Position numbers and translations under genes: made by a program. Positions 3,894 through 32,993 of a stretch of DNA of 34,405 bases are shown here, piece after piece. The notes under the pieces were generated by a model. It was not told the DNA's origin. It saw nothing but the letters and a program-made list of their open reading frames with translations, and ran no database searches. The stretch's first letter is position 1; every line of letters begins with the position of its first letter. The stretch is from a virus (taxonomy: Duplodnaviria > Heunggongvirae > Uroviricota > Caudoviricetes): positions 1-34,405 of IMG/VR virus record IMGVR_UViG_2639762844_000002; one strand, written 5' to 3'.

Positions 3894-4165
3894 GTATTCG
3901 TATTGAAATTGGCGAACGTTATGTCGTTACCAGTGACAGCTTTCAGTTTATTCTCCACGAGAAAAAGAGAGCGGAAAGCGGTAAAAACGCCGGTCAGGAA
4001 TGGCTGGCGGTGGTTGGTTATTACCCGAAATTAAGCCAGCTCGTTTCCGGCCTGATGCATCACGATATTCTGACCGGAAGCGCAAAGTCTTTTGCTGATT
4101 TAAACGCGCAGGTTGAGCAACTCAGCAAGCGTTGTTCAGAGGCTTTTGGCTCATATGGCCGTTAA
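3890..4165 (+). CDS. Hypothetical early protein (P2 orf83 position)
   Basis: 91 aa; start overlaps the upstream stop. Confidence 0.6.
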   Translation: MSIRIEIGERYVVTSDSFQFILHEKKRAESGKNAGQEWLAVVGYYPKLSQLVSGLMHHDILTGSAKSFADLNAQVEQLSKRCSEAFGSYGR

Positions 4166-6440
4166 AGCCTCCGGGCGTTTTGTCCCTCCGTCAGCATTTG
4201 CCGCAGGCACCGGTAAGACGTTTACCGGTGCTTATGCATGGAACGCGCCACGCGAGGCTGTCGGGCGCGAAAGACCCCTTACACGTGACGAGATGCGTCA
4301 GGTGCAAGGTGTTTTATCCACGATTAACCGCCTGCCTTACTTTTTGCGCTCGCTGTTTACTTCACGTTATGACTACATCCGGCGCAATAAAAGCCCGGTG
4401 CACGGGTTTTATTTCCTCACATCCACTTTTCAGCGTCGTTTATGGCCGCGCATTGAGCGTGTGAATCAGCGCCATGAAATGAACACCGACGCGTCGTTGC
4501 TGTTTCTGGCAGAGCGTGACCACTATGCGCGCCTGCCGGGAATGAATGACAAGGAGCTGAAAAAGTTTGCTGCCCGTATCTCATCGCAGCTTTTCATGAT
4601 GTATGAGGAACTCAGCGATGCCTGGGTGGATGCGCATGGCGAGAAAGAATCGCTGTTTACGGATGAGGCGCAGGCTCACCTCTATGGTCATGTTGCTGGC
4701 GCTGCACGTGCTTTCAATATTTCCCCGCTTTACTGGAAAAAATACCGTAAAGGACAGATGACCACGAGGCAGGCATATTCTGCAATTGCCCGTCTGTTTA
4801 ACGATGAGTGGTGGACTCATCAGCTTAAAGGCCAGCGTATGCGCTGGCATGAAGCGTTACTGATAGCTGTCGGGGAGGTCAATAAAGACCGTTCTCCTTA
4901 TGCCAGTAAACACGCCATTCGTGATGTGCGTGCGCGCCGCCAGGCAAATCTGGAATTTCTTAAATCGTGTGACCTTGAAAACAGGGAAACCGGCGAGCGC
5001 ATCGACCTTATCAGTAAGGTGATGGGCAGTATTTCTAATCCTGAAATTCGCCGGATGGAGCTGATGAACACCATTGCCGGTATTGAGCGTTACGCCGCCG
5101 CAGAGGGTGATGTGGGGATGTTTATCACGCTGACCGCGCCGTCAAAGTATCACCCGACACGTCAGGTCAGAAAAGGCGAAAGTAAAACCGTTCAGCTAAA
5201 TCACGGCTGGAACGATGAGGCATTTAATCCAAAGGATGCGCAGCGTTATCTCTGCCGCATCTGGAGCCTGATGCGCACGGCATTCAAGGATAATGATTTA
5301 CAGGTCTACGGTTTGCGTGTCGTCGAGCCACACCACGACGGAACGCCGCACTGGCATATGATGCTTTTTTGTAATCCACGCCAGCGTAACCAGATTATCG
5401 AAATCATGCGTCGCTACGCGCTCAAAGAGGATGGAGACGAAAGAGGAGCTGCGCGAAACCGTTTTCAGGCAAAGCACCTTAACCGGGGCGGTGCTGCGGG
5501 ATATATCGCGAAATACATTTCAAAAAATATCGACGGCTATGCACTGGATGGTCAGCTCGATAACGATACCGGTAAGCCGCTTAAAGATACTGCCGCGGCT
5601 GTTACCGCATGGGCGTCAACGTGGCGCATCCCGCAATTTAAAACGGTTGGCCTGCCGACAATGGGGGCTTACCGTGAACTACGCAAATTGCCGCGCGGCG
5701 TCAGCATTGCTGATGAGTTTGACGAGCGCGTCGAGGCTGCACGCGCCGCCGCAGACAGTGGTGATTTTGCGTTGTATATCAGCGCGCAGGGTGGGGCAAA
5801 TGTCCCGCGCGATTGTCAGACTGTCAGGGTCGCCCGTAGCCCGTCGGATGAAGTTAACGAGTACGAGGAAGAAGTCGAGAGAGTGGTCGGCATTTACGCG
5901 CCGCATCTCGGCGCGCGTCATATTCATATCACCAGAACGACGGACTGGCGCATTGTTCCGAAAGTTCCGGTCGTTGAGCCTTTGACTTTAAAAAGCGGCA
6001 TCGCCGCGCCTCGGAGTCCTGTCAATAACTGTGGAAAGCTCACCGGTGGTGATACTTCGTCACCGGCTCCCACGCCTTCTGAACACGCCGTAGCAGTGCT
6101 TAATCTGGTAGATGACGGTGTTATCGAATGGAATGACCAGGAGGTCGTGAGGGCGCTCAGAGGTGCATTAAAACACGGTCTGAGAAGACCAAACCGTCAG
6201 CAAAGAAACGGAAGCCCGTTAAAACCGCATGAAATAGCGCCATCGGCCAGACTGACCCGGTCGGAACGAATGCAAATTACCTGTATCCGCGTTGACCTTG
6301 CTCAGAACGGTATCAGGCCACAGCGATGGGAGCTTGAGGCGCTGGCTCGGGGAGCGACCATAAATTATGGCGGGAAAAAATTCACGTATCCGGTCATTGA
6401 TGAGTGGCCGGGATTCTCAACAGTAATGGAGTGGACATAA
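4155..6440 (+). CDS. A: Replication initiation endonuclease A (rolling-circle)
   Basis: 761 aa from the ATG at 4155, matching P2 A length. The track ORF extends to 4113 but that start overlaps orf83 by 53 nt. Confidence 0.9.
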   Translation: MAVKASGRFVPPSAFAAGTGKTFTGAYAWNAPREAVGRERPLTRDEMRQVQGVLSTINRLPYFLRSLFTSRYDYIRRNKSPVHGFYFLTSTFQRRLWPRIERVNQRHEMNTDASLLFLAERDHYARLPGMNDKELKKFAARISSQLFMMYEELSDAWVDAHGEKESLFTDEAQAHLYGHVAGAARAFNISPLYWKKYRKGQMTTRQAYSAIARLFNDEWWTHQLKGQRMRWHEALLIAVGEVNKDRSPYASKHAIRDVRARRQANLEFLKSCDLENRETGERIDLISKVMGSISNPEIRRMELMNTIAGIERYAAAEGDVGMFITLTAPSKYHPTRQVRKGESKTVQLNHGWNDEAFNPKDAQRYLCRIWSLMRTAFKDNDLQVYGLRVVEPHHDGTPHWHMMLFCNPRQRNQIIEIMRRYALKEDGDERGAARNRFQAKHLNRGGAAGYIAKYISKNIDGYALDGQLDNDTGKPLKDTAAAVTAWASTWRIPQFKTVGLPTMGAYRELRKLPRGVSIADEFDERVEAARAAADSGDFALYISAQGGANVPRDCQTVRVARSPSDEVNEYEEEVERVVGIYAPHLGARHIHITRTTDWRIVPKVPVVEPLTLKSGIAAPRSPVNNCGKLTGGDTSSPAPTPSEHAVAVLNLVDDGVIEWNDQEVVRALRGALKHGLRRPNRQQRNGSPLKPHEIAPSARLTRSERMQITCIRVDLAQNGIRPQRWELEALARGATINYGGKKFTYPVIDEWPGFSTVMEWT

Positions 6441-6507
6441 TGGCAAAAATTCACGCAATATTAGATAATTTCGTACTGTATATATTTAGTGTTATTGAAA
6501 AATCTCG

Positions 6508-6525
6508 ACAGAAAGAGTTTTCTGT
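6508..6525 (+). terminator. Weak hairpin (acagaaa / tttctgt) followed by an AT-run downstream of A
   Basis: 7-bp stem, 4-nt loop, then attta. Possible A terminator. Confidence 0.3.
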
Positions 6526-6593
6526 ATTTAATCGTTGCTTGCAGTTTGGTATTGTTTACCATGATTGTTTGTTAAGTGCTTTAAAGGTGAGGA

Positions 6594-8432
6594 ATGAGCG
6601 AGTTTGATGTTTTTTCTATTTCAGTTGATGATTTTAAAAAAAGTGAATACGCCAGTATATTATCATCGCCAAGAAGTTATTCTCATTTTGATATGGAGTC
6701 TTATTTTGTTCAGTTGTTGTCATCTTACAAGCTAAAAAACGATGTAAGTTCTTGGCGGCTTTGCTATTTATTACGTGCGTTGTTTAATTTTAAATTTTCT
6801 AGGTCTGGTGATATTATCGGTTTTGAGCCAAAAATCATTCTCTATCCTGAGAGGGGCTATAGGCCTTCAGATTATAAGGAGAGTTTTTCAACAATATTAA
6901 CTTGTATTAAAGAAAACTCCGATAATCCTTATATTATATCTAGGGTGTGTGATGTTTTATGGATAAATAACCGTAAGGATATAGACTCTGCCAATAAAGC
7001 AATAGAGTCATATTCTCTAATGGTTAATGATGCTTGCGATACTTTAATAGAAAAACAAGAGTCAGGTGATATCCATATTTTTGATGTTGTTGACTGCTTG
7101 GATAGAGGTATCGCAATATCGCGCATGCTTATTGGCAGGAAAAAACAACTACAAGGGGGGATAGTTGATTCGACATTAAGGTTATATCATGTATTAATAG
7201 ACTCTGGTATATTCACCGGTGTATTAAGAGTTTCTGAAATTCTTTATAAGAATAATTTATTGTGTCCCTTGCAATTGGCTGAGAATGCAGAAAAGATAGC
7301 TGATGAGCATTGTGGAGCGTCTTATTTTGATGCAGTGAAAAAATTGTTTTATTTTGCGTCTGAATTATATGTTAAAAACGATATGGAAGAGCAAGGAAGA
7401 CGGTGCAGAATTAAAGCGTCAGAAATAACATTGGCTCAATTTGAACAGTCTTCATCTTCAATATTGAAGGCTCATTGGTTAAGAGTTGCTCTTGGCGAAT
7501 TTAGAGCAATTGGTGGAATGAATGAAGAAATTAAAAAGATTAGAGAGGAATTGAATTCTATTCGAGATCAAATCAATGATGAAATGCACTTCTTTGCAAT
7601 ACCAATGGATCTTAGTGATGTTATCGCTCAGAAAGAGCATGTTTATAATCAATTGGATTTCTCAAGGGTAATTAAAACTTTAATTGCTAGATTTAAGATT
7701 GTAAGTGCCAGTGAAATTATGGAAAGAGCTCGTTCCGATGCTAAAAAACATTTTTTTCTTAATATGAGTGAAACGGTTGTTTATGATGATAGAGGGCGCG
7801 TTGTAGCAAGTCGTTCACCTTTGGATCCTGCGGGGGATATAAGTTTAAATGATGCTTGTGCAAATTATTTAAGAACTAGTAACATTGAGCATCAGGTCTA
7901 TGTTTGTGGTGAGTTTGAAGTCGTTAGGCAAAGTGTGTTGGCTAGGTATTCATTAAATGAAAATACATTTGACCCAATCTCACAACAAAGTGCATTTGTT
8001 CCACCTGGGTATGCAGAAATATTTTCTTTGGGGTTTTATAAGCTTTGGCAGGGAGATTATGTGTCTGCCTGTTATTTGTTATTGCCGCAATTGGAGAATT
8101 CAATTAGATGGATTTTAGAATTAAGAAGAAAAGAAACAACGAAAATAGATGTGTCGCTTTTTGAGGAGGCTACTAGCCTATCTCAAATGCTTGCAAATTA
8201 TAGGAGTGAAATGGAAGGTGTTTTTGATAGTGATCATGTATTGACTATGGATTTATTGTTCAATATGAAAGGTGGTGCTGCAATTAGACACACGATGGCT
8301 CATGGCAGGTATACTGTAAATCATTGTTATCAACCAACTTCAGTTTTTGCCTGTGTCTTTATCTTTTATTTAACTTGTTTGCCTTTATTTAGTGTATGGG
8401 AAGATAAAGTTGAACCTTATCTGGCTGATTAA
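6594..8432 (+). CDS. Cargo protein of unknown function (612 aa) at the tin/old hotspot; candidate anti-phage defence protein
   Basis: Long ORF in an AT-rich block between A and cos. RBS aggtgagg. No Walker A (GxxxxGK[ST]) motif, unlike P2 Old. C-terminal hydrophobic stretch SVFACVFIFYLTCLPLFSVW. An R-x4-H motif (AIRHTMAHG) sits near the C-terminus. Confidence 0.8.
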   Translation: MSEFDVFSISVDDFKKSEYASILSSPRSYSHFDMESYFVQLLSSYKLKNDVSSWRLCYLLRALFNFKFSRSGDIIGFEPKIILYPERGYRPSDYKESFSTILTCIKENSDNPYIISRVCDVLWINNRKDIDSANKAIESYSLMVNDACDTLIEKQESGDIHIFDVVDCLDRGIAISRMLIGRKKQLQGGIVDSTLRLYHVLIDSGIFTGVLRVSEILYKNNLLCPLQLAENAEKIADEHCGASYFDAVKKLFYFASELYVKNDMEEQGRRCRIKASEITLAQFEQSSSSILKAHWLRVALGEFRAIGGMNEEIKKIREELNSIRDQINDEMHFFAIPMDLSDVIAQKEHVYNQLDFSRVIKTLIARFKIVSASEIMERARSDAKKHFFLNMSETVVYDDRGRVVASRSPLDPAGDISLNDACANYLRTSNIEHQVYVCGEFEVVRQSVLARYSLNENTFDPISQQSAFVPPGYAEIFSLGFYKLWQGDYVSACYLLLPQLENSIRWILELRRKETTKIDVSLFEEATSLSQMLANYRSEMEGVFDSDHVLTMDLLFNMKGGAAIRHTMAHGRYTVNHCYQPTSVFACVFIFYLTCLPLFSVWEDKVEPYLAD

Positions 8433-8593
8433 TGGAAGTTGATTTAGGTATTTTGGCATTTATCTTTCTGCGTGCAATATGTGCATGGTTTTGCATGTGC
8501 CGGAGTTGCATGTTCCGGCCGTGCGTCCGCCAGGACGGGCGTGGCTCAAAAGCGGTATTGCACCTGCATTAAAACCGCCCCACGAAGCGGGCG

Positions 8594-8612
8594 GGCGAGG
8601 CGGGGAAAGCAC
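8594..8612. other. cos site: 19-nt cohesive end ggcgaggcggggaaagcac
   Basis: Matches the P2 cohesive-end sequence as I recall it. Embedded in a GC-rich non-coding island (about 8470..8650) inside AT-rich cargo, upstream of Q as in P2. Confidence 0.6.
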
Positions 8613-8745
8613 TGCGCGCAATGATGTCAGTTTGAGGGCATCAGGCATGGGGACACTACACAGTTTCATTTTTGTTATTAATTGTTTATCATATAAGTGT
8701 TTGTTTTTTGAACGGCATGTCGTGTGCTATATGGAGTGAATAGAA

Positions 8746-9015
8746 GTGACTAAATTTGACAAAAAAAAAGCAATTTCTATTTTAACAGAAAAAAAAGCCT
8801 TGCTCCCATGTCATCGGTGTGGAAATTCAAAGTTCATCATTTTGGATGGCATATCATCACTTCCATTAATGGAAAATATGGAAATGATTGGTAGTATTGT
8901 TGTTGGCGGAATGAATGCTCCTGTATTACATGTGGCATGTGAGAATTGTGGTGCAGTTACTTCACATTTGCTTGGGGCACTTGGTTTAATGCCGGAGATT
9001 AAATCAAATGACTAA
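8746..9015 (+). CDS. Small four-Cys zinc-ribbon protein (89 aa), cargo
   Basis: GTG start with GGAG 10 nt upstream. CHRCG ... CENCG is a two-CxxC zinc ribbon. Overlaps the downstream gene by 8 nt. Confidence 0.6.
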   Translation: MTKFDKKKAISILTEKKALLPCHRCGNSKFIILDGISSLPLMENMEMIGSIVVGGMNAPVLHVACENCGAVTSHLLGALGLMPEIKSND

Positions 9016-9478
9016 GGATGTTTTTTTCTCTGATGAAGGTAGTGGTAAAAAAAGTGCTGTCTTGCATGGGGCGCAGGTTACAATAAACCCTGATTCGCAA
9101 TTTACAAAAAAGATAATTAGGCAGACTGAGGTTGATGTTATTGTGATAAGTGATGATAAACTTCATATAATTTTGACGAATTGCTTATCTAAAATTGCAT
9201 CATTAAACCGCTGGTCAACACCTTTGGGTATTTTAATTACCTTGGCGGTAACTATGTTAACCACAAATTTTAAGAATTTTATTCTTCAGGATTCTGTGTG
9301 GGAGGCTGTTTTCTGGATGCTTATTTTTTTTAATATTATCTGGTTGGTGAAAAACATTCCATATAGACACTTATTTTTAACTGTTTGTCATTCTATAGGG
9401 GTTCGTAAAGATAAAAAAAGAATTAGTGATGTATACCACATTATAGATATAATTAAACAAGGTGATACACGCTTTTGA
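9008..9478 (+). CDS. Small membrane protein with two predicted TM helices (156 aa), cargo
   Basis: Hydrophobic segments LGILITLAVTMLTT and VFWMLIFFNIIWLV. Translationally coupled to the zinc-ribbon gene. AT-rich. Confidence 0.65.
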   Translation: MTKDVFFSDEGSGKKSAVLHGAQVTINPDSQFTKKIIRQTEVDVIVISDDKLHIILTNCLSKIASLNRWSTPLGILITLAVTMLTTNFKNFILQDSVWEAVFWMLIFFNIIWLVKNIPYRHLFLTVCHSIGVRKDKKRISDVYHIIDIIKQGDTRF

Positions 9479-9511
9479 TTTAATATCAATATTTGATTGA
9501 GTATATAATAA

Positions 9512-9534
9512 AGCCGCCTGAGTTTATGGCGGCT
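9512..9534. terminator. Hairpin terminator (agccgcc-N9-ggcggct), effective on the minus strand
   Basis: Stem-loop followed by tttattatata on the minus strand, terminating the leftward Q-P operon. Also lies just after the plus-strand small genes. Confidence 0.5.
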
Positions 9535-9554
9535 AATATAGGGTGTGTGCTAAG

Positions 9555-10574
9555 TCATAATGTGTATTTGTTGAATCTAATTATTTCTTCGCCAACCCAT
9601 TCATTAAGGGCAATAAAGCGAGATTGAATAGGAGTAAGCTCATTGCGGACAAAGACCTTTGCCACTTTCTCAATATCACCCAGCGACCCGACGTTCTCCG
9701 GCTTGCCGCCCATCAACTGAAAGGGGATGCGGTGCGCGTCCAGCAGGTCAGCGGCGCTGGCTTTTTTGATATTAAAAAAATCGTCCTTCGTTGCCACTTC
9801 ACTGAGCGGGATAATTTTAATGCCGTCGGCTTTCCCTTGCGGGGCATAGAGAAACAAATTTTTAAAGTTGTTGCGGCCTTTCGACTTCACCATGTTTTCG
9901 CGAAGCATTTCGATATCGTTGCGATCCTGCACGGCATCGGTGACGTACATGATGTATCCGGCATGTGCGCCGTTTTCGTAATACTTGCGGCGGAACAGCG
10001 TGGCCGACTCATTCAGCCAGGCAGAGTTAAGGGCGCTGAGATATTCCGGCAGGCCGTACAGCTCCTGATTAATATCGGGCTCCAGCAGGTGAAACACGGA
10101 GCCGGGCGCGAAGGCTGTCGGCTCGTTGAAGGACGGCACCCACCAGTAAACATCCTCTTCCACGCCACGACGGGTATATTTTGCCGGTGAGGTTTCCAGT
10201 CTGATGACCTTACCGGTGGTGCTGTAGCGCTTTTCCAGAAACGCATTACCGAACACCAGAAAATCCAGCACAAAGCGGCTGAAATCCTGCTGGGAAAGCC
10301 ACGGGTGCGGGATAAACGTTGAAGCCAGAATATTACGTTTGACGTAAATCGGTGAGCTGTGATGCACGGCAGCACGCAGACTTTTTGCCAGACCGGTAAA
10401 GCTGACCGGCGGCTCATACCATCTGCCGTTACTGATGCATTCGACGTAATCCAGAATGTCACGGCGGTCGAGTACCGGCACCGGCTCACCAAAGGTGAAT
10501 GCCTCCATTTTCGGGGCGCTGGCGGTCATTTTTTTTGCCGCAGGTTGCGGTATTTTCCCTTTTTTCTTGCTCAT
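9555..10574 (-). CDS. Q: Portal protein
   Basis: 339 aa; position and length as P2 Q (capsid portal). The extreme C-terminal codons are AT-rich. Confidence 0.9.
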   Translation of the reverse strand: MSKKKGKIPQPAAKKMTASAPKMEAFTFGEPVPVLDRRDILDYVECISNGRWYEPPVSFTGLAKSLRAAVHHSSPIYVKRNILASTFIPHPWLSQQDFSRFVLDFLVFGNAFLEKRYSTTGKVIRLETSPAKYTRRGVEEDVYWWVPSFNEPTAFAPGSVFHLLEPDINQELYGLPEYLSALNSAWLNESATLFRRKYYENGAHAGYIMYVTDAVQDRNDIEMLRENMVKSKGRNNFKNLFLYAPQGKADGIKIIPLSEVATKDDFFNIKKASAADLLDAHRIPFQLMGGKPENVGSLGDIEKVAKVFVRNELTPIQSRFIALNEWVGEEIIRFNKYTL

Positions 10575-12346
10575 CAGTAAAACTCCAGAATGGTGGATGT
10601 CAGCGGGGTGCTGATACCGGCGGTGAGTGGCTCATTTAACAGGGCGTGCATGGTCGCCCAGGCGAGGTCGGCGTGGCTGGCTTCCTCGCTGCGGCTGGCC
10701 TCATAGGTGGCGCTGCGTCCGCTGCTGGTCATGGTCTTGCGGATAGCCATAAACGAGCTGGTGATGTCGGTGGCGCTGACGTCATATTCCAGACAGCCAC
10801 GGCGGATAACGTCTTTTGCCTTGAGCACCATTGCGGTTTTCATTTCCGGCGTGTAGCGGATATCGCGCGCGGCGGGATAGAACGAGCGCACGAGCTGGAA
10901 CACGCCGACACCGAGGCCGGTGGCATCAATCCCGATGTATTCAACGTTATATTTTTCGGTGAGTTTGCGGATGGATTCCGCCTGGGTGGCAAAGTCCATG
11001 CCTTTCCACTGGTGACGCTCAAGTATTCTGAATTTGCCACCGGCCACCACCGGCGGTGCCAGCACCACGCATCCGGCGCTGTCGCCACGGTGTGACGGGT
11101 CGTAACCAATCCATACCGGGCGGGAGCCGAACGGATTGGCGGCAAACGGCGCATAGTCTTCCCATTCTTCCAGCGTGTCGACCATGCAGCGTTGCAGCTC
11201 CTCGAACGGGAACACCGACGCCTTGTCGTCAACAAATTCACACATGAACAGGTTTTTAAAATCGTCGGCGCTGTTTTCACGTTTGAGCTGCTCAATGTCG
11301 AACAGCGTGCAGCCACCTTTCAGGGCGTCCTCAATGGTGACAATCTGCCGCCACTGGCCGTCCGCACAGAGAAGCCCACCGGCAAGGGCGTTATGACTGA
11401 CGTCGATTTCCACGCGTTCGGCGGCGCTGGCGCGTCCCCGGTTGAACAGTTCACCTGACCAGAACGGGTAGGCGTCGTGCGCCAGCGTGGACGGGGTGGA
11501 GAAATAGGTCGAACGCAGGTGACTCTGTGAGGCCATACCTGATGCCACCTTACGCAGTACCTGAAAATTCGGGATCCAGAAAATCTCGTCGACGTACAGG
11601 TCGCCGTTATGGCTCTGTGCGGTGTTGGAGTTGGTGCCGAGAAAAATTAGTTTTGCGCCGTTATTGCCCAGGACAATCGGGTCACCGGTCAGGTCAACGT
11701 CAACCAGACGGGCAAAGGCGATGATGTATTCGCGGAACACATACGCCTGCGTTTTACTGGCCGACAGAAAAATCTGGTTATGACCGGTTTTCAGGGCGCG
11801 CAGCAGCGCCTCGCGGGAAAAATAAAACGTCGCGCCAATCTGGCGGGATTTCAGGATATCGCGGATGCGGTGCTCAAGCCCGGCGCGATACCAGTGCAAC
11901 TGATATTCGAAAGACTGCTCAAAGAAAATCTGCTCCAGCTTTTCGATGGCCTCGTCACTGAAAAAATTCTTTTTCGGTTTGCGACGCCCGCCTTTGTTGC
12001 GGTTAGCGACGTTCGGATTAAGGTCTGCCTCGTTGCCGGTCTGACTGTAGCGGTTGACCCGCGCCAGTCGTTCAATCTGGCGTCCCAGCAGGTCAATTTC
12101 CTTGAAGTCACCGCCGGTTTTCTGCGGTTTGATGATGAGCTGGGTCAGTCGCGCTTCCAGACTCATTTCGACACGGCTGATGGGGGCAACGCTGTCCCAG
12201 CCGTCGCGCTGTTTCCAGCTCTGCACCGTCGGGCGTTTCATCTGCAACATGGCGGCAATCTGCGGCACGGAAAATCCCTGCCAGTACAGCAGCGCCGCCT
12301 GACGACGCGGGTCGTGTAAAAGAGTGGTGTCTGTGGTGATGGTCAT
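10574..12346 (-). CDS. P: Terminase large subunit (ATPase)
   Basis: 590 aa from the ATG at 12346 (RBS ggcgagg), equal to P2 P length. The track ORF extends to a TTG at 12376. Confidence 0.9.
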   Translation of the reverse strand: MTITTDTTLLHDPRRQAALLYWQGFSVPQIAAMLQMKRPTVQSWKQRDGWDSVAPISRVEMSLEARLTQLIIKPQKTGGDFKEIDLLGRQIERLARVNRYSQTGNEADLNPNVANRNKGGRRKPKKNFFSDEAIEKLEQIFFEQSFEYQLHWYRAGLEHRIRDILKSRQIGATFYFSREALLRALKTGHNQIFLSASKTQAYVFREYIIAFARLVDVDLTGDPIVLGNNGAKLIFLGTNSNTAQSHNGDLYVDEIFWIPNFQVLRKVASGMASQSHLRSTYFSTPSTLAHDAYPFWSGELFNRGRASAAERVEIDVSHNALAGGLLCADGQWRQIVTIEDALKGGCTLFDIEQLKRENSADDFKNLFMCEFVDDKASVFPFEELQRCMVDTLEEWEDYAPFAANPFGSRPVWIGYDPSHRGDSAGCVVLAPPVVAGGKFRILERHQWKGMDFATQAESIRKLTEKYNVEYIGIDATGLGVGVFQLVRSFYPAARDIRYTPEMKTAMVLKAKDVIRRGCLEYDVSATDITSSFMAIRKTMTSSGRSATYEASRSEEASHADLAWATMHALLNEPLTAGISTPLTSTILEFY

Positions 12347-18275: not shown

Positions 18276-18726
18276 GTTTAAGCGTTTTGAAGACCGGCTG
18301 ACCGGACTTATTGAATCGCTGTCACCGTCAGGGCGTCGGCGACTGGCGGTAGATATTGCGAAGAAACTGCGCCAGCGCCAGCAGCAGCGAATTAAATTAC
18401 AAAAAGCCCCGGATGGTACGCCGTATATACCGAGAAAAAACCAGCCAGTGCGAAATAAGAAAGGCCGGATAAAGCGGGAAATGTTTGCGAAATTACGCAC
18501 AAACCGATTTATGAAAGCAACAGGTAGCGAGAGTGCGGCTGTGGTGGAGTTTGCCAGCGGAGTACAACGAATTGCGAGAGTACATCAATTAGGGCTTAGG
18601 GATAAGCCGGGGCGTAATAGTGCTGTGGTGGAATATCCTGTTCGTGAGTTATTAGGTTTTGACAAGGAATCTATACAATTGATAGAAAAGGAGTTATTAG
18701 TGATTCTATCGAAAGATGTTATATGA
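18268..18726 (+). CDS. S: Tail completion protein S (3' end recoded AT-rich)
   Basis: 152 aa. The N-terminal two thirds are GC-typical; composition turns AT-rich from about 18590. Confidence 0.85.
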   Translation: MNEFKRFEDRLTGLIESLSPSGRRRLAVDIAKKLRQRQQQRIKLQKAPDGTPYIPRKNQPVRNKKGRIKREMFAKLRTNRFMKATGSESAAVVEFASGVQRIARVHQLGLRDKPGRNSAVVEYPVRELLGFDKESIQLIEKELLVILSKDVI

Positions 18727-19478
18727 GATGGGTGTTTGTGGATAAAAAATTTTCCATTTTGAGAAAAAGAGTAAAGCATTCTCAAAAGAAAGTTATGGAT
18801 TGTATTATTGCTGACCATAATGCTGATGTATGTGTGTTATGCGGGAGTTCTGACGATATTACTCGTGAGCACATTATTCCTCAGTGGGCCTTTGAGTCAA
18901 ATGCTGAAAAACTTTTAATTAATAAAAAGAATAATCAGTCAACTCATTACATCAAAGCCACTGTACCAGCATGCAGAGTGTGCAATTCTGATTTGCTGGG
19001 AGCGTTTGAGTATAACCTGAAGAAATTTCTTACGGAAAAGAGGGGCGATGAGTTAACAGATTATGAATATGATTGCATCATATGGTGGTTGCAATACATG
19101 GGCTTTAAGTTGCAATTAATGGATTTACGGACCCGCTTTCTCAGGTATAAAGGGGGGGATTATATCCCTTTCCTTGCAAACTTCCCGGTTGCAATGTTTT
19201 GGGGGAATGTCGATACGACACCGGAGGATGTCTTCAGGATTATAAGAAAATCGCGACGCAATCTGATGTCGAAATGGAAGGATAAAAAACATAATTCTTT
19301 GATGGTTTTTGAAACATCAAACAAGAGTTTTCATTTCTTTCATAAGGTTGATGAATTTATTTTTATTGAAATGCCTCAGGTTAAGAAGGCGTTTTTCTTC
19401 TTTTTTAATAAAGAATTTGACAGCCATGATTTAGCTCATGAGGAGTGTATGAAGATTATAGAGAAGTGCTACAACTAA
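18723..19478 (+). CDS. HNH-motif nuclease-domain protein (251 aa), cargo inserted between S and V
   Basis: CVLCGSSDDITREHIIPQW ... CRVCNSDL fits the HNH signature (CxxC-EHIxP-N-CxxCN). AT-rich. Start overlaps the S stop (ATGA). Confidence 0.8.
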   Translation: MRWVFVDKKFSILRKRVKHSQKKVMDCIIADHNADVCVLCGSSDDITREHIIPQWAFESNAEKLLINKKNNQSTHYIKATVPACRVCNSDLLGAFEYNLKKFLTEKRGDELTDYEYDCIIWWLQYMGFKLQLMDLRTRFLRYKGGDYIPFLANFPVAMFWGNVDTTPEDVFRIIRKSRRNLMSKWKDKKHNSLMVFETSNKSFHFFHKVDEFIFIEMPQVKKAFFFFFNKEFDSHDLAHEECMKIIEKCYN

Positions 19479-21981: not shown

Positions 21982-24111
21982 ATGAGCACAAAATTCAGAA
22001 CCGTTATCACCACTGCCGGTGCAGCAAAGCTGGCAGCGGCAACCGCGCCGGGAGGGCGGAAGGTCAACATTACCACGATGGCCGTCGGGGATGGCGGTGG
22101 TAAATTGCCTGTCCCGGATGCCGGACAGACCGGGCTTATCCATGAAGTCTGGCGACATGCGCTGAACAAAATCAGCCAGGACAAACGAAACAGTAATTAT
22201 ATTATCGCAGAGCTGGTTATTCCGCCGGAGGTGGGCGGTTTCTGGATGCGGGAGCTTGGCCTGTACGATGATGCGGGAACGTTAATTGCCGTGGCGAACA
22301 TGGCCGAAAGCTATAAGCCAGCTCTTGCCGAAGGCTCAGGGCGTTCGCAGACCTGCCGCATGGTCATCATCGTCAGCAGTGTGGCCTCAGTGGAGCTGAC
22401 CATTGACACCACAACGGTGATGGCGACGCAGGATTACGTTGATGACAAAATTGCAGAGCATGAACAGTCACGACGTCACCCGGACGCCTCGCTGACCGCA
22501 AAAGGTTTTACTCAGTTAAGCAATGCGACCAACAGCACGTCTGAAACACTGGCCGCAACGCCAAAAGCAGTAAAGACCGCCTATGACCTGGCTAACGGGA
22601 AATATACTGCACAGGACGCCACCACCGCGCGAAAAGGCCTTGTTCAGCTCAGTAGTGCGACTAACAGCACGTCTGAAACGCTCGCCGCAACGCCAAAAGC
22701 AGTAAAGACCGCCTATGACCTTGCTAACGGGAAATACACTGCACAGGACGCCACCACAGCGCGAAAAGGGCTTGCTCAGCTCAGTAGCGCCACCAACAGC
22801 GATTCTGAAACGCTTGCGGCAACGCCAAAGGCGGTAAAGGCAGCATATGACCTCGCTAACGGGAAATATACCGCACAGGATGCCACCACTGCGCGAAAAG
22901 GTCTTGTCCAGCTCAGTAGCGCCACAAACAGCGATTCTGAAACGCTTGCGGCAACGCCAAAGGCGGTAAAGGTCGCGTATGACCTTGCTAACGGGAAATA
23001 CACTGCACAGGATGCCACCACAGCGCGAAAAGGGCTTGTTCAGCTCAGTAGCGCCACCAACAGTGATTCGGAAACGCTGGCCGCAACACCAAAAGCGGTG
23101 AAGTCTGCCTATGACAATGCTGAAAAACGTCTTCAGAAAGATCAAAATGGCGCGGATATTCCTGATAAAAGATTATTCCTGCGCAATATTGGAGCAACAA
23201 ATTCAACAACCATGTCTTTTAGTGGTGGTACAGGATGGTTCAGGCTGGCAACTGTAACCATGCCACAGGCCAGTTCCGTGGTTTACATAAGTCTGATTGG
23301 TGGTGCTGGATATAATGTTAACTCCCCTATGCAGGCTGGTATATCTGAACTTGTTCTTCGTGCGGGAAATGGAAATCCAAAAGGTCTTACTGGTGCGTTA
23401 TGGCGACGGACATCGGTTGGATTTACTAATTTTGCATGGGTGAATACATCCGGTGATACCTATGATGTTTATGTTGAAATAGGTAATTACGCCACAGGTG
23501 TTAATATTCAGTGGGATTATACCAGTAACGCCAGCGTAACGATTCATACATCACCATCTTATACAGCGAATAAACCAACAGGCCTGACAGATGGAACTGT
23601 ATATGTAATTTACAGTTCGCACATTAAACCGACTGCTGCTGATGTTGGGGCGTTGTCATTATCTGGAGGTCAATTGAATGGTGCACTGGGCATCGGAACA
23701 TCCAGTGCTCTTGGCGGTAACTCGATTGTTTTGGGTGATAATGACACGGGCTTTAAACAAAATGGCGACGGTAATCTGGATGTTTATGCTAATAACGTCC
23801 ATGTTATGCGCTTTGTCTCCGGTAGCATTCAAAGTAATAAAACCATAAATATTACGGGGCGTGTTAATCCCACAGATTACGGTAACTTTGATTCCCGCTA
23901 TGTCCGGGATATCCGGCTTGGTGGTGCTGCCACATACAAACCTGCGAACAATGGCATGACATGGACACATCAGGCACCGTCCGGGTGTATATATTCCGGC
24001 ATTATTGTTCAGGATACCGGCTCAAACTCTGCCGATAACATTGGTGGCGTATATTACAGACCGGTTCAGAAATACATTAACGGGACATGGTATAACGTGG
24101 CACAGGTATAA
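21982..24111 (+). CDS. H: Tail fibre protein H (mosaic, with internal tandem repeats)
   Basis: 709 aa. Conserved N-terminus, a central repeat array, and an AT-richer Gly/Tyr/Thr-rich C-terminal domain. Confidence 0.9.
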   Translation: MSTKFRTVITTAGAAKLAAATAPGGRKVNITTMAVGDGGGKLPVPDAGQTGLIHEVWRHALNKISQDKRNSNYIIAELVIPPEVGGFWMRELGLYDDAGTLIAVANMAESYKPALAEGSGRSQTCRMVIIVSSVASVELTIDTTTVMATQDYVDDKIAEHEQSRRHPDASLTAKGFTQLSNATNSTSETLAATPKAVKTAYDLANGKYTAQDATTARKGLVQLSSATNSTSETLAATPKAVKTAYDLANGKYTAQDATTARKGLAQLSSATNSDSETLAATPKAVKAAYDLANGKYTAQDATTARKGLVQLSSATNSDSETLAATPKAVKVAYDLANGKYTAQDATTARKGLVQLSSATNSDSETLAATPKAVKSAYDNAEKRLQKDQNGADIPDKRLFLRNIGATNSTTMSFSGGTGWFRLATVTMPQASSVVYISLIGGAGYNVNSPMQAGISELVLRAGNGNPKGLTGALWRRTSVGFTNFAWVNTSGDTYDVYVEIGNYATGVNIQWDYTSNASVTIHTSPSYTANKPTGLTDGTVYVIYSSHIKPTAADVGALSLSGGQLNGALGIGTSSALGGNSIVLGDNDTGFKQNGDGNLDVYANNVHVMRFVSGSIQSNKTINITGRVNPTDYGNFDSRYVRDIRLGGAATYKPANNGMTWTHQAPSGCIYSGIIVQDTGSNSADNIGGVYYRPVQKYINGTWYNVAQV
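22501..23110 (+). repeat. About 4.6 tandem copies of a 132-bp (44-aa) in-frame repeat within H
   Basis: Copies begin at 22501, 22633, 22765, 22897 and 23029. Each encodes KGLVQLSSATNSxSETLAATPKAVKxAYDLANGKYTAQDATTAR. Confidence 0.9.
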
Positions 24112-24114
24112 TTT

Positions 24115-24642
24115 ATGCAGCATTTGATAAATATAACAGCGGGGAATCCAAAAACGGTTGAACAATATCAATTGACAAAGGGTTTTGATGTTGTCTGGTT
24201 TTTTTCAGAAGATGGTAAGAACTGGTACGAAGAACAAAAGTATTTTGCTGATGACACGATAAAAATAGCGTACGACAAAGATAATATTATCCGCTATGTG
24301 GAAAAGGATGTGACAGCTATCAGACCAGATGGATTAAGTGTTGTTGAAGTGCCAGATATTACTGCTAACCGACGGGCGGACATTTCAGGGAACTGGATGT
24401 TTAAGGACGGCACAGTGATTAAACGAATTTATACGGCGGAGGAATTGCAGCAGCAGGCAGAAAATCGGAAAGCCAGACTTCTAGCAGATGCTGAATCCGT
24501 GATTTTGCCGCTGGAGCGCTCTGTCAGGCTGAACATGGCAACAGAGGAGGAGCGCACACGGCTGGAGGCTTGGGAACGCTATAGCGTTCTGGTCAGTCGT
24601 GTGGATCCTGCAAATCCTGAATGGCCGGAAATGCCGCAATAA
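24115..24642 (+). CDS. G: Tail fibre assembly chaperone
   Basis: 175 aa, immediately downstream of H. Confidence 0.88.
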
Positions 24643-24805: not shown

Positions 24806-25846
24806 TCAGTATAAATTTAACCCAAGCTTACTAATTTCTTTTCTACGCATTCCAAAAATAACATCACCACTTCTAGAAATGAATGAAGCAATGCGTCGGT
24901 CATTGTCATCTACACCTTCCCAGAAGAAAGGGACATTATTGTTCATCAGACTTTCTGCAAAGGTTAAATGTGTTAACGCCAAGAAAATTCTAACAAAATT
25001 AGATGGCTCATTGAAATCCTGATTCAGCAAATGTAGTGTCAAATGTCTATTGAAGCTACCTTCATTAACACCTCCAGTTGGTTTATATATGACATTTTTA
25101 AAAAAAGATCTGGTTGAATTCATCACATCACACTGGGGGTTTAAATGTGTGAAAAAATCCACCTCAGTTTCAATGTCATAACCTTTGCCGGGATGCCAGT
25201 CAAAATTTGGGAGCTGCCGTCTTCCCCATGTAATAATGAGTTTTCTAATTTCCTTTTCAAATCTGTCTGCACTTGTATTTGTGTTGTCACCATCACAAAA
25301 TTTTACAAGTAAGTTCCTCAATCCACCTTCAAAGACAGGGAAGAGCGACATTATAGATATATGATCATACCCCAAATAAAAAGCTTCTATAGCTTCAAAA
25401 ATAATTGTCTTGTAGTTTTTTAGTGATTCGCTCTTTATAAAGTATTTGTTGAAGTAAGCAATTGCAATTTCTAATGAGAAATTTTCGAATAACCATTTAT
25501 TTGAATTATTAAGCGGATTTTCACTTCTTTTAATTTCATGGATTGCAGAAGAAAGAGTGCCTTCTCCAATATATAGGGGTAATGCTATACCAAGTGAATT
25601 TGCATGCGACTGAATATTCGAACATCGTCCCCAATGTCTATTTAAGTACGATATTGGCCTTTCGGTAAGCAAGAAGTTTAAATCATCAATTTTAACTGTG
25701 AAAGAAGCATAACAAAGTTCACTTTTTGAGATTACTGGTTCTACGCTATGATTTCTCCTGAATTGATTTAGAATTTCATTCTCAGAGAGTTTGTCTAATT
25801 TTGATAAGCGTTTCAAAGTTGGCAGGAATTTTTCTAAATCTGACAT
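24806..25846 (-). CDS. Cargo protein of unknown function (346 aa) at the Z/fun locus; candidate anti-phage or exclusion protein
   Basis: AT-rich ORF on the strand opposite the late genes, between G and FI where P2 carries Z/fun. Own AT-rich upstream region. No recognisable motif. Confidence 0.8.
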   Translation of the reverse strand: MSDLEKFLPTLKRLSKLDKLSENEILNQFRRNHSVEPVISKSELCYASFTVKIDDLNFLLTERPISYLNRHWGRCSNIQSHANSLGIALPLYIGEGTLSSAIHEIKRSENPLNNSNKWLFENFSLEIAIAYFNKYFIKSESLKNYKTIIFEAIEAFYLGYDHISIMSLFPVFEGGLRNLLVKFCDGDNTNTSADRFEKEIRKLIITWGRRQLPNFDWHPGKGYDIETEVDFFTHLNPQCDVMNSTRSFFKNVIYKPTGGVNEGSFNRHLTLHLLNQDFNEPSNFVRIFLALTHLTFAESLMNNNVPFFWEGVDDNDRRIASFISRSGDVIFGMRRKEISKLGLNLY

Positions 25847-26168: not shown

Positions 26169-27359
26169 ATGAGTGACTATCATCACGGCGTGCAGGTGCT
26201 GGAGATTAACGACGGCACCCGCGTCATTTCCACTGTATCCACGGCCATTGTCGGCATGGTCTGCACGGCCAGCGATGCGGATGCGGAAACCTTCCCCCTC
26301 AATAAACCGGTGCTGATTACCAATGTGCAAAGCGCAATTGCAAAGGCCGGTAAAAAAGGCACGCTGGCGGCTGCGTTGCAGGCCATCGCCGACCAGTCAA
26401 AACCGGTCACCGTTGTTGTGCGTGTGGAAGACGGCACCGGCGACGACGAGGAAACGAAGCTCGCGCAGACCGTTTCCAATATCATCGGCACCACCGACGA
26501 AAACGGTCAGTACACCGGACTGAAAGCCCTGCTGGCGGCGGAGTCGGTAACCGGTGTTAAACCGCGCATTCTCGGTGTGCCGGGACTGGACACCAAAGAG
26601 GTGGCTGTTGCACTGGCATCAGTCTGTCAGAAGCTGCGCGCTTTCGGGTATATCAGCGCATGGGGCTGTAAAACCATTTCTGAGGTGAAAGCCTACCGCC
26701 AGAATTTCAGCCAGCGTGAGCTGATGGTCATCTGGCCGGATTTCCTCGCATGGGATACGGTCACCAGTACCACCGCCACCGCGTATGCCACTGCCCGTGC
26801 GCTGGGTCTGCGCGCTAAAATCGACCAGGAGCAGGGCTGGCATAAAACGCTGTCCAACGTTGGGGTGAACGGTGTTACCGGCATCAGTGCATCTGTATTC
26901 TGGGATTTGCAGGAGTCCGGCACCGATGCTGACCTGTTGAACGAGTCAGGTGTCACAACGCTGATTCGCCGTGACGGTTTCCGCTTCTGGGGTAACCGTA
27001 CCTGCTCTGATGACCCGCTGTTCCTCTTTGAAAACTACACCCGCACCGCGCAGGTGCTGGCCGACACGATGGCTGAGGCGCACATGTGGGCGGTGGACAA
27101 GCCCATCACTGCAACGCTGATTCGCGACATCGTTGACGGCATCAATGCCAAATTCCGTGAGCTGAAAACAAACGGCTATATCGTGGATGCGACCTGCTGG
27201 TTCAGCGAAGAATCCAACGATGCGGAAACCCTCAAGGCCGGAAAACTGTATATCGACTACGACTATACACCGGTGCCTCCTCTCGAAAACCTGACCCTGC
27301 GCCAGCGTATTACCGATAAATACCTGGCAAATCTGGTCACCTCGGTTAACAGCAATTAA
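26169..27359 (+). CDS. FI: Tail sheath protein
   Basis: 396 aa; length as P2 FI. Confidence 0.92.
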   Translation: MSDYHHGVQVLEINDGTRVISTVSTAIVGMVCTASDADAETFPLNKPVLITNVQSAIAKAGKKGTLAAALQAIADQSKPVTVVVRVEDGTGDDEETKLAQTVSNIIGTTDENGQYTGLKALLAAESVTGVKPRILGVPGLDTKEVAVALASVCQKLRAFGYISAWGCKTISEVKAYRQNFSQRELMVIWPDFLAWDTVTSTTATAYATARALGLRAKIDQEQGWHKTLSNVGVNGVTGISASVFWDLQESGTDADLLNESGVTTLIRRDGFRFWGNRTCSDDPLFLFENYTRTAQVLADTMAEAHMWAVDKPITATLIRDIVDGINAKFRELKTNGYIVDATCWFSEESNDAETLKAGKLYIDYDYTPVPPLENLTLRQRITDKYLANLVTSVNSN

Positions 27360-32872: not shown

Positions 32873-32899
32873 AAAAAATAAGCCCGTGTAAGGGAGATT
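32873..32899. repeat. attR core (aaaaaataagcccgtgtaagggagatt)
   Basis: Exact 27-bp repeat of attL. Forms the 3' terminator hairpin and U-tail of cyaR. Confidence 0.85.
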
Positions 32900-32959
32900 A
32901 CACAGGCTAAGGAGGTGGTTCCTGGTACAGCTAGCATTTTATGGGTTATGTTTTTCAGC
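32873..32959 (-). ncRNA. cyaR: CyaR (RyeE) Hfq-dependent small RNA
   Basis: The minus strand reads GCTGAAAAACATAACCCATAAAATGCTAGCTGTACCAGGAACCACCTCCTTAGCCTGTGTAATCTCCCTTACACGGGCTTATTTTTT, matching my recollection of E. coli CyaR, including the CCACCTCCTTA seed and a terminator hairpin with U-tail. Confidence 0.85.
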
Positions 32960-32993
32960 GAAACGGATGATAACCTTAATAAATGCAGCTGTA

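Follow-up and report, generated by a model that had tools for sequence, protein, structure and literature searches.

ORF612, a DUF7380-HEPN cargo protein of a P2-like Escherichia coli prophage and a catalogued candidate for phage defence

Which function does a P2-like prophage gain from the AT-rich gene that lies between its replication gene A and its cos site? The stretch of DNA that was analysed, hereafter the window, is 34,405 nt long (IMG/VR record IMGVR_UViG_2639762844_000002, positions 1 to 34,405), and its gene at 6594..8432 on the + strand encodes a protein of 612 amino acids (aa), ORF612. We found that ORF612 is an apparently soluble, all-alpha single chain in which a DUF7380 domain is followed by an alpha-solenoid and then by a HEPN domain, and that this C-terminal domain is of the DUF4209/C6orf70 type with an intact predicted catalytic signature (E501, R505 and R565-x4-H570). 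The best explanation is that a P2-like E. coli prophage acquired the gene horizontally and carries it as cargo (a 'moron') in its A-cos (tin/old) slot. It is already known as a catalogued yet unvalidated phage-defence candidate and does not represent a new kind of system. The encoded product probably cuts RNA as a soluble HEPN protein whose front half is helical and resembles a sensor, and, regarding its role, we lean towards a defence function that is expressed in the lysogen.

Family and domains of ORF612

According to the initial annotation, the protein could not be matched to any family and was an uncharacterised novelty, and neither view held. The Pfam family DUF7380 (PF24098) matched aa 8-184 with 86.9 bits, where the cut-off is 27 (E 1.9e-24), while PADLOC PDC-S39, the only PADLOC match, covered the protein over its full length (aa 8-600; PDLC05011 E 2e-68, PDLC05012 E 1e-67; profile positions 7-583 of 595). 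PHROG 5183 matched ORF612 as well, NCBIfam gave no match, and a search of the PDB by sequence, with either the single sequence or a profile, returned nothing meaningful. Moreover, a protein that is 99.7% identical is annotated as 'ORF612' in the phage record of P2-EC46 (GenBank AM157366). In Rousset et al. 2022, ORF612 is P2-hotspot system #55, which has the label 'DUF4209' and 76 occurrences in 18,150 loci; the start of its catalogued protein1 is identical to that of ORF612 as far as the text shows, and WP_001288417, the accession of ORF612, has 24 entries in Table S5A. When 1.84 billion cluster representatives were searched with a profile, 5,870 family clusters (50% identity) were found at E<=1e-3 and 2,073 at E<=1e-30, with the best 150 of the 5,870 being nearly all full-length at ~590-660 aa. 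DUF7380 was found in 80/80 and DUF4209 in 71/80 of the family members that were scanned (best DUF4209 E 6e-23), and the named members come from E. coli, Citrobacter, Vibrio and Gluconobacter. The features of the gene and of its product are as follows.

6594..8432, + strand: coding sequence of ORF612, 612 aa and stop; DUF7380 / alpha-solenoid / HEPN (DUF4209-type), PADLOC PDC-S39 (family matches, RefSeq, dN/dS 0.23)
6615..7145, + strand: DUF7380 domain, all-alpha, aa 8-184 (Pfam, family conservation)
7146..7598, + strand: central helical-hairpin (TPR/SNAP-like) alpha-solenoid, aa 185-335
7599..7997, + strand: linker, aa 336-468, with a conserved beta-hairpin bearing G401-R402
7998..8429, + strand: C-terminal HEPN domain of the DUF4209/C6orf70 type, aa 469-612
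8085..8108, + strand: PQLENSIR block in HEPN helix 2; E501, the conserved acidic residue of this helix, is 100% and R505 99% conserved
8286..8303, + strand: R565-H-T-M-A-H570, the HEPN Rx4H catalytic signature, followed by the invariant G571 (160 representatives)
8334..8423, + strand: hydrophobic C-terminal helix, aa 581-610, read as HEPN helix 4 (structure prediction, family comparison)

The HEPN assignment developed from a short motif, AIRHTMAHG (aa 563-571, i.e., R565-x4-H570), which had tentatively been taken for a HEPN-type RNase signature with the caution that it might have occurred by chance. The caution was justified: given the composition of the protein, R-x4-H is expected 0.76 times and was observed twice in ORF612, so the motif by itself proves nothing, and its weight comes from its conservation across the family. 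In an alignment of 160 representatives that were drawn from ~5,900 clusters, E501, H570 and G571 were conserved in 100% of the sequences and R565, R505 and P498 in 99%; R565 and H570 were also invariant in an alignment of 80 sequences (A5). The tentative reading is further strengthened by the structure that was predicted with AlphaFold (AF2), in which the predicted local distance difference test score (pLDDT) was 81.5 for the full-length protein and 85.6 for aa 415-612 alone, the latter with a predicted template modelling score (pTM) of 0.83. Among the structures matched by the C-terminal model were the MNT-associated HEPN toxins 7ae2, 8xdj and 5yep, HI0074 and AbiA, and then RnlA, LsoA and Las1. 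Additionally, a hidden Markov model of the C-terminal region of 50 members with less than 22% identity matched aa 471-599 of ORF612 (72.7 bits, E 1.2e-24). The predicted helices fit the published HEPN layout, in which helix 2 bears an acidic residue, an insert separates it from helix 3, and an Rx4-6H motif ends helix 3. In the predicted model, E501 lies in helix 2 (489-510), which is followed by a variable insert (511-545), R565 is at the end of helix 3, H570 is at the start of the next loop, and helix 4 comes after it. Anantharaman 2013 assigned DUF4209 to the C6orf70-type HEPN family, which they listed with 'Rx4-6H: yes', TPR fusions and operons related to restriction-modification (R-M) systems, and predicted to be catalytically active.

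The N-terminal half has its own conserved positions. The polar residues R87, D93, R117, D120, W123, Y140 and R171 of DUF7380 were near-invariant both in the 160 representatives and in alignment A5, and this pattern of conservation may mark a ligand-binding or regulatory surface. It also bears on a different view of the protein, in which the HEPN domain would be a non-catalytic scaffold that binds RNA, nucleotides or a partner protein, with the output produced either by the DUF7380 pocket or, in trans, by a partner from the host or the prophage. Non-catalytic HEPN domains do exist, e.g., that of Swt1 (Anantharaman 2013), and the near-invariant residues of DUF7380 suggest a functional site. However, the Rx4H motif and the acidic residue of helix 2 were essentially invariant in the 160 representatives, which is the pattern of an active HEPN nuclease, and no conserved partner gene was seen. 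We therefore consider a scaffold role improbable and retain the reading of the C-terminal domain as a catalytically competent HEPN domain.

The hydrophobic segment near the C-terminus (SVFACVFIFYLTCLPLFSVW, aa 583-602) had been thought to suggest membrane anchoring. If the tail were a transmembrane (TM) anchor, it would place the HEPN domain or another toxic domain at the inner membrane. The properties of ORF612 itself could be read in this way, as its best 19-aa Kyte-Doolittle window reaches 2.17 and aa 581-600 are without a charged residue, and a TM region is present in the eukaryotic C6orf70 proteins (Anantharaman 2013). The family comparison points in the opposite direction. In the 160 relatives, the aligned tail segment averaged ~1.0 in hydropathy and contained two charged residues in the median, and a TM-like value of 1.6 was reached in only 11/160; a charged and moderately hydropathic tail in the relatives indicates a buried core helix rather than a conserved TM segment. 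Moreover, AF2 packed aa 581-610 with high confidence into the C-terminal bundle as its long final helix, the location of the tail after the Rx4H motif is the exact place of HEPN helix 4, and the equivalents of Y585 and W588 were ~90% conserved, as is the case for core positions. The membrane-anchor reading is thus largely refuted by the family comparison and has very little probability left, and the tail is better described as the last core helix of the HEPN domain.

The cargo slot and the distribution of the gene

The window has the gene order of a P2-like prophage, with the integrase, C, cox, B and gpA genes on the left of ORF612 and those of the portal Q, terminase P, scaffold O and capsid N on the right. 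The initial annotation had placed a 612-aa, AT-rich gene in the P2 tin/old hotspot (gpA-gpQ; Rousset 2022), and the coordinates, the GC content and the cos site all agree with this placement. ORF612 begins with an ATG and is intact, and RefSeq annotates it at identical coordinates in E. coli ECC-1470, EH41 and EH53, with DNA that is 100% identical over 6300-9600. Its GC content is 0.344 (0.263 at third codon positions), compared to values of 0.533 and 0.516 in the gpA and portal genes, respectively. The 19-nt cohesive end of P2, GGCGAGGCGGGGAAAGCAC, has one exact occurrence in the window, at 8594-8612, and the location between A and cos is therefore correct. The gpA gene ends at 6440, ORF612 is the sole gene of the A-cos interval, and in this interval the earlier statement that a single gene occupies the slot is right. 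It does not extend to the whole A-to-Q hotspot, because the part from cos to Q contains two further AT-rich open reading frames (ORFs), at 8746-9015 and 9008-9478, which gives three cargo genes. The elements that delimit the slot are listed below.

4155..6440, + strand: P2 gpA replication endonuclease, flanking the slot on the left
6441..6593, + strand: AT-rich intergenic leader from the gpA stop to ORF612, whose sigma-70-like matches are weak and do not exceed chance
6584..6587, + strand: Shine-Dalgarno-like AAGG, 6 nt 5' of the ATG, equivalent of the ribosome-binding site annotated in GenBank AM157366
8594..8612, + strand: P2 cos cohesive end, 19/19 match, boundary of the A-cos cargo slot
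9555..10574, - strand: P2 gpQ portal protein, flanking the hotspot on the right

Promoter and terminator scans of the locus gave matches that were not above the shuffled expectation. Scans of the same locus with Rfam and for repeats revealed neither non-coding RNA (ncRNA) nor an antitoxin-like repeat array nor mobile-element ends, and no antitoxin-like gene is adjacent to ORF612.

ORF612 was present in 21 of 5,426 complete E. coli genomes, and all of the 21 copies were full length and chromosomal. Compared with an allele that is 91.5% identical, the ratio of nonsynonymous to synonymous substitution rates (dN/dS) was 0.23 overall and 0.17-0.32 by domain. The intact copies and the low dN/dS speak for a real gene. 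A scan of IMG/VR yielded only seven loci, and in five of them the contig measures 31-33 kb, as a P2-like genome does. Two homologues with 52% and 35% identity (P0005 and P0009) are likewise located between gpA and the portal gene, in other P2-like prophages, and distant homologues (18-22% identity) stand alone, in contexts that vary. No partner gene was conserved across the homologue contexts that were examined, which fits a single-gene system. Two candidates for such a partner were rejected. The ORFs downstream of cos, which encode a protein with two TM helices and a zinc-ribbon protein, segregate independently of ORF612, and a SLATT_5 neighbour was found with only one distant homologue. The cos-Q cargo that is paired with ORF612 differs by strain, being the two small ORFs found in the window, the retron Ec48 or nothing: in E. 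coli GN02461, the cos-Q sub-slot carries the reverse transcriptase and the effector of retron Ec48, and in VE-V10-F it is empty.

The neighbours of the gene and of its homologues are of some interest in their own right. The overlapping, AT-rich ORF pair between cos and the portal gene (8746-9478, + strand, GC 0.337) encodes an 89-aa zinc-ribbon protein (CxxC...CxxC), for which Pfam gave a sub-threshold, Lar-like match (E 0.004), and a 156-aa protein with two hydrophobic helices that matches phrog_32870 (E 1.7e-9); the pair might form a small module for exclusion or defence. Next to the distant homologue P0011 (18% identity), a small gene was found ~210 nt downstream in 3/3 metagenomic contigs (L006 10028-10363, L007 8558-8893 and L008 4559-4810). 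Its product is of the SLATT_5 type in L006 and L007; in L008 the gene is cut by the end of the contig and has no Pfam call, and no SLATT_5-type neighbour was present beside the other homologues examined. In the degraded P2-like prophage that carries P0005 (L004), a 303-aa ORF with no Pfam match (9849-10760) starts 7 nt past the stop of P0005, and the window contains no equivalent of it.

The possible function of ORF612

We are inclined, by a modest degree of belief, to read ORF612 as a lysogen-expressed and phage-triggered HEPN endoribonuclease that acts by abortive infection or growth arrest; its RNase activity, trigger, dimerisation and defence role are what we infer from the domains and the locus. 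The protein would be made in the lysogen and held inactive, with its helical N-terminal half (the alpha-solenoid) serving as a sensor or autoinhibitor that would sense a component of the infecting phage. Sensing would either relieve the autoinhibition or cause the HEPN domains to dimerise, and a composite RNase site would be formed. The cleavage of RNA (tRNA, rRNA or mRNA) would then arrest the cell and abort the infection, through which the lysogen population and the prophage would be protected.

Several observations weigh against this proposal. In the HEPN superfamily, the expected activity is that of a metal-independent endoribonuclease whose composite site is formed by a dimer, and a lone HEPN domain requires a dimer partner. 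The Pfam model of DUF4209 (PF13910) does not match the C-terminus of ORF612, even at E<=10, and the link to DUF4209 was therefore made through the family; even the paralogue from E. coli S88 scored 19.9 bits with this model, below the cut-off of 22.3. Because the sigma-70-like matches were not above chance, a promoter for expression of ORF612 in the lysogen was not established by the scan of the locus. The PDC-S39 class is a 'candidate' only, and in the literature PDC-S39 was found only as a detection label. A published anti-phage phenotype was not found in the literature for any family member, and the literature on DUF7380, P2-EC46 and ERMARD together with HEPN offered nothing beyond Anantharaman 2013. 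Moreover, the S88 paralogue, which is 32.5% identical, occupies the same slot and has the same catalytic and invariant residues as ORF612, was cloned under its own promoter (pFR103, 'Putative HEPN'; Rousset et al.). After challenge with eight coliphages, pFR103 stands in Table S2B of that work (additional tested) and is absent from Table S2A (validated). The same paper shows that negatives can reflect poor expression, with the O42 PARIS system being active only from an inducible promoter. The two proteins are only 32.5% identical, the outcome for pFR103 cannot simply be transferred to ORF612, and system #55 is not among the tested constructs in the available parts of Table S2 of Rousset et al. 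2022.

The same evidence can be fitted to an active HEPN RNase that has a role other than defence in the prophage, such as the processing or regulation of RNA in lysogeny or induction, the manipulation of the host or an addiction-like stabilisation. The catalytic signature and the purifying selection are equally compatible with such a role, housekeeping genes stand beside distant homologues, and the validated defence systems do not include pFR103. Furthermore, the P2 hotspot also carries non-defence cargo, namely partition systems and a cytolethal distending toxin, as described in Rousset 2022, in which the gpA-gpQ locus is presented as a defence hotspot. The occurrence in only 21/5,426 E. coli genomes and the exchange with known defence genes at the slot argue otherwise, as they indicate that ORF612 is dispensable for the life cycle of P2. 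The lack of an adjacent antitoxin-like gene or ncRNA at the locus also speaks against such a role; the family is a defence candidate in PADLOC, and the association with R-M operons (Anantharaman 2013) points in the same direction. On balance, a non-defence RNase appears unlikely, albeit less so than a non-catalytic scaffold, and the phage-triggered endoribonuclease remains the reading that we prefer.

A broader and distinctly more speculative proposal, which we regard as possible but doubtful, concerns the whole DUF7380-DUF4209 family (~5,900 clusters). It may be a widespread single-protein immune sensor-RNase, in which an N-terminal pocket (R87, D93, R117, D120, W123, Y140 and R171) would recognise a phage product or a small molecule, and its HEPN domain may be the prokaryotic ancestor of human ERMARD/C6orf70. 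Anantharaman et al. trace the DUF4209/C6orf70 HEPN lineage into eukaryotes (Anantharaman 2013). If the proposal is true, the ORF612 allele would be a tractable E. coli model for an uncharacterised HEPN lineage that is traceable to the last eukaryotic common ancestor. If ORF612 protects lysogens, a catalogue entry (PDC-S39, Rousset #55) would become a validated single-gene HEPN system and would provide the first functional handle on the DUF4209/C6orf70 lineage. Our analysis re-identifies a known candidate, corrects the idea of a membrane anchor, and pins down the residues for mutation, i.e., E501, R505, R565 and H570 together with the DUF7380 pocket. What remains of interest is to validate a very large family of HEPN proteins for which ERMARD/C6orf70 has been proposed as the descendant in eukaryotes.

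Other cargo of the prophage and comparison with known systems

The window carries further features. A 251-aa, AT-rich ORF (18723-19478, + strand, local GC ~0.38) lies between the gpS-like tail-completion and gpV-like baseplate spike genes and has only a weak HNH-like match (E 0.008) and none in PADLOC. In the related P2-like prophage L004, a GmrSD_N protein occupies the same S-V slot, which suggests that this slot is a further cargo hotspot. The most AT-rich part of the window (GC ~0.335) contains a 346-aa ORF on the opposite strand (24806-25846, - strand), which is at the P2 Z/fun position between the tail-fibre assembly (24115-24642) and tail sheath (26169-27359) genes; it has no Pfam or PADLOC match at E<=0.01 and is another unassigned cargo gene. 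The 709-aa tail-fibre ORF (21982-24111, + strand) has, as seen in its translation, ~5 tandem copies of a ~43-aa repeat (…ATNS.SETLAATPKAVK.AYDLANGKYTAQDATTARKGL…). Near the right end of the window, a CyaR/RyeE small RNA gene was detected (32876-32961, - strand; 100.7 bits in Rfam, where the gathering score is 47), and this region is taken to be host DNA that flanks the prophage.

Compared with the known systems, ORF612 is closest to those in which it has already been recorded. The ORF612 of P2-EC46 and Rousset system #55 are the same gene in the same P2-like prophage locus. PDC-S39 has the same architecture, length and single-gene make-up; nothing structural differs, and ORF612 is a member of it, although this clade is divergent enough that the 89-position Pfam model of DUF4209 fails to score. 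S88 system #13 / pFR103, which is also found in phage vB_EcoM-569R9 as a 'DUF4209 domain-containing protein', shares with ORF612 the gpA-portal slot and the combination of DUF7380 and HEPN. P2 Old and Tin have the same slot and the same presumed lysogen-expressed exclusion role as ORF612, but no homology with it. The OLD family combines an N-terminal ABC-type ATPase, with Walker A, and a TOPRIM domain; the Walker A motif is absent from ORF612, as had been noted from the start, and no ATPase or TOPRIM match was found with Pfam or PADLOC.

The C6orf70/ERMARD-type HEPN proteins resemble ORF612 in their conserved Rx4-6H motif, and their bacterial versions have TPR-like fusions and occur in the context of conflict systems (Anantharaman 2013). 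According to their published description, the eukaryotic proteins have a TM region and are predicted to be at the endoplasmic reticulum, whereas the phage protein appears to be soluble. AbiD/AbiF (Abi_2), ApeA, RloC/PrrC and RnlA/LsoA are, like ORF612, larger sensor or regulatory proteins with a C-terminal HEPN Rx4-6H nuclease, and the C-terminal model of ORF612 aligns to the HEPN domains of RnlA/LsoA and AbiA. However, ORF612 did not match the PADLOC or Pfam models of AbiD/F, ApeA, RloC/PrrC or RnlA/LsoA, and its N-terminus is an alpha-solenoid and not the beta-rich N-terminal domain of ApeA, the ABC ATPase of RloC and PrrC or the NRD of RnlA; it is therefore not a member of the AbiD/F, ApeA, RloC/PrrC or RnlA families. 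In particular, the suggestion of an ApeA-like protein is not supported, as PADLOC gave no ApeA match and the N-terminal region is all-alpha, while ApeA-NTD1 consists of 'mostly beta strands' (Anantharaman 2013). RnlA additionally has an antitoxin partner, RnlB, and ORF612 is without one. ORF612 nevertheless plausibly works, by analogy, like the single-protein HEPN Abi effectors AbiD/F, ApeA, RloC/PrrC and RnlA.

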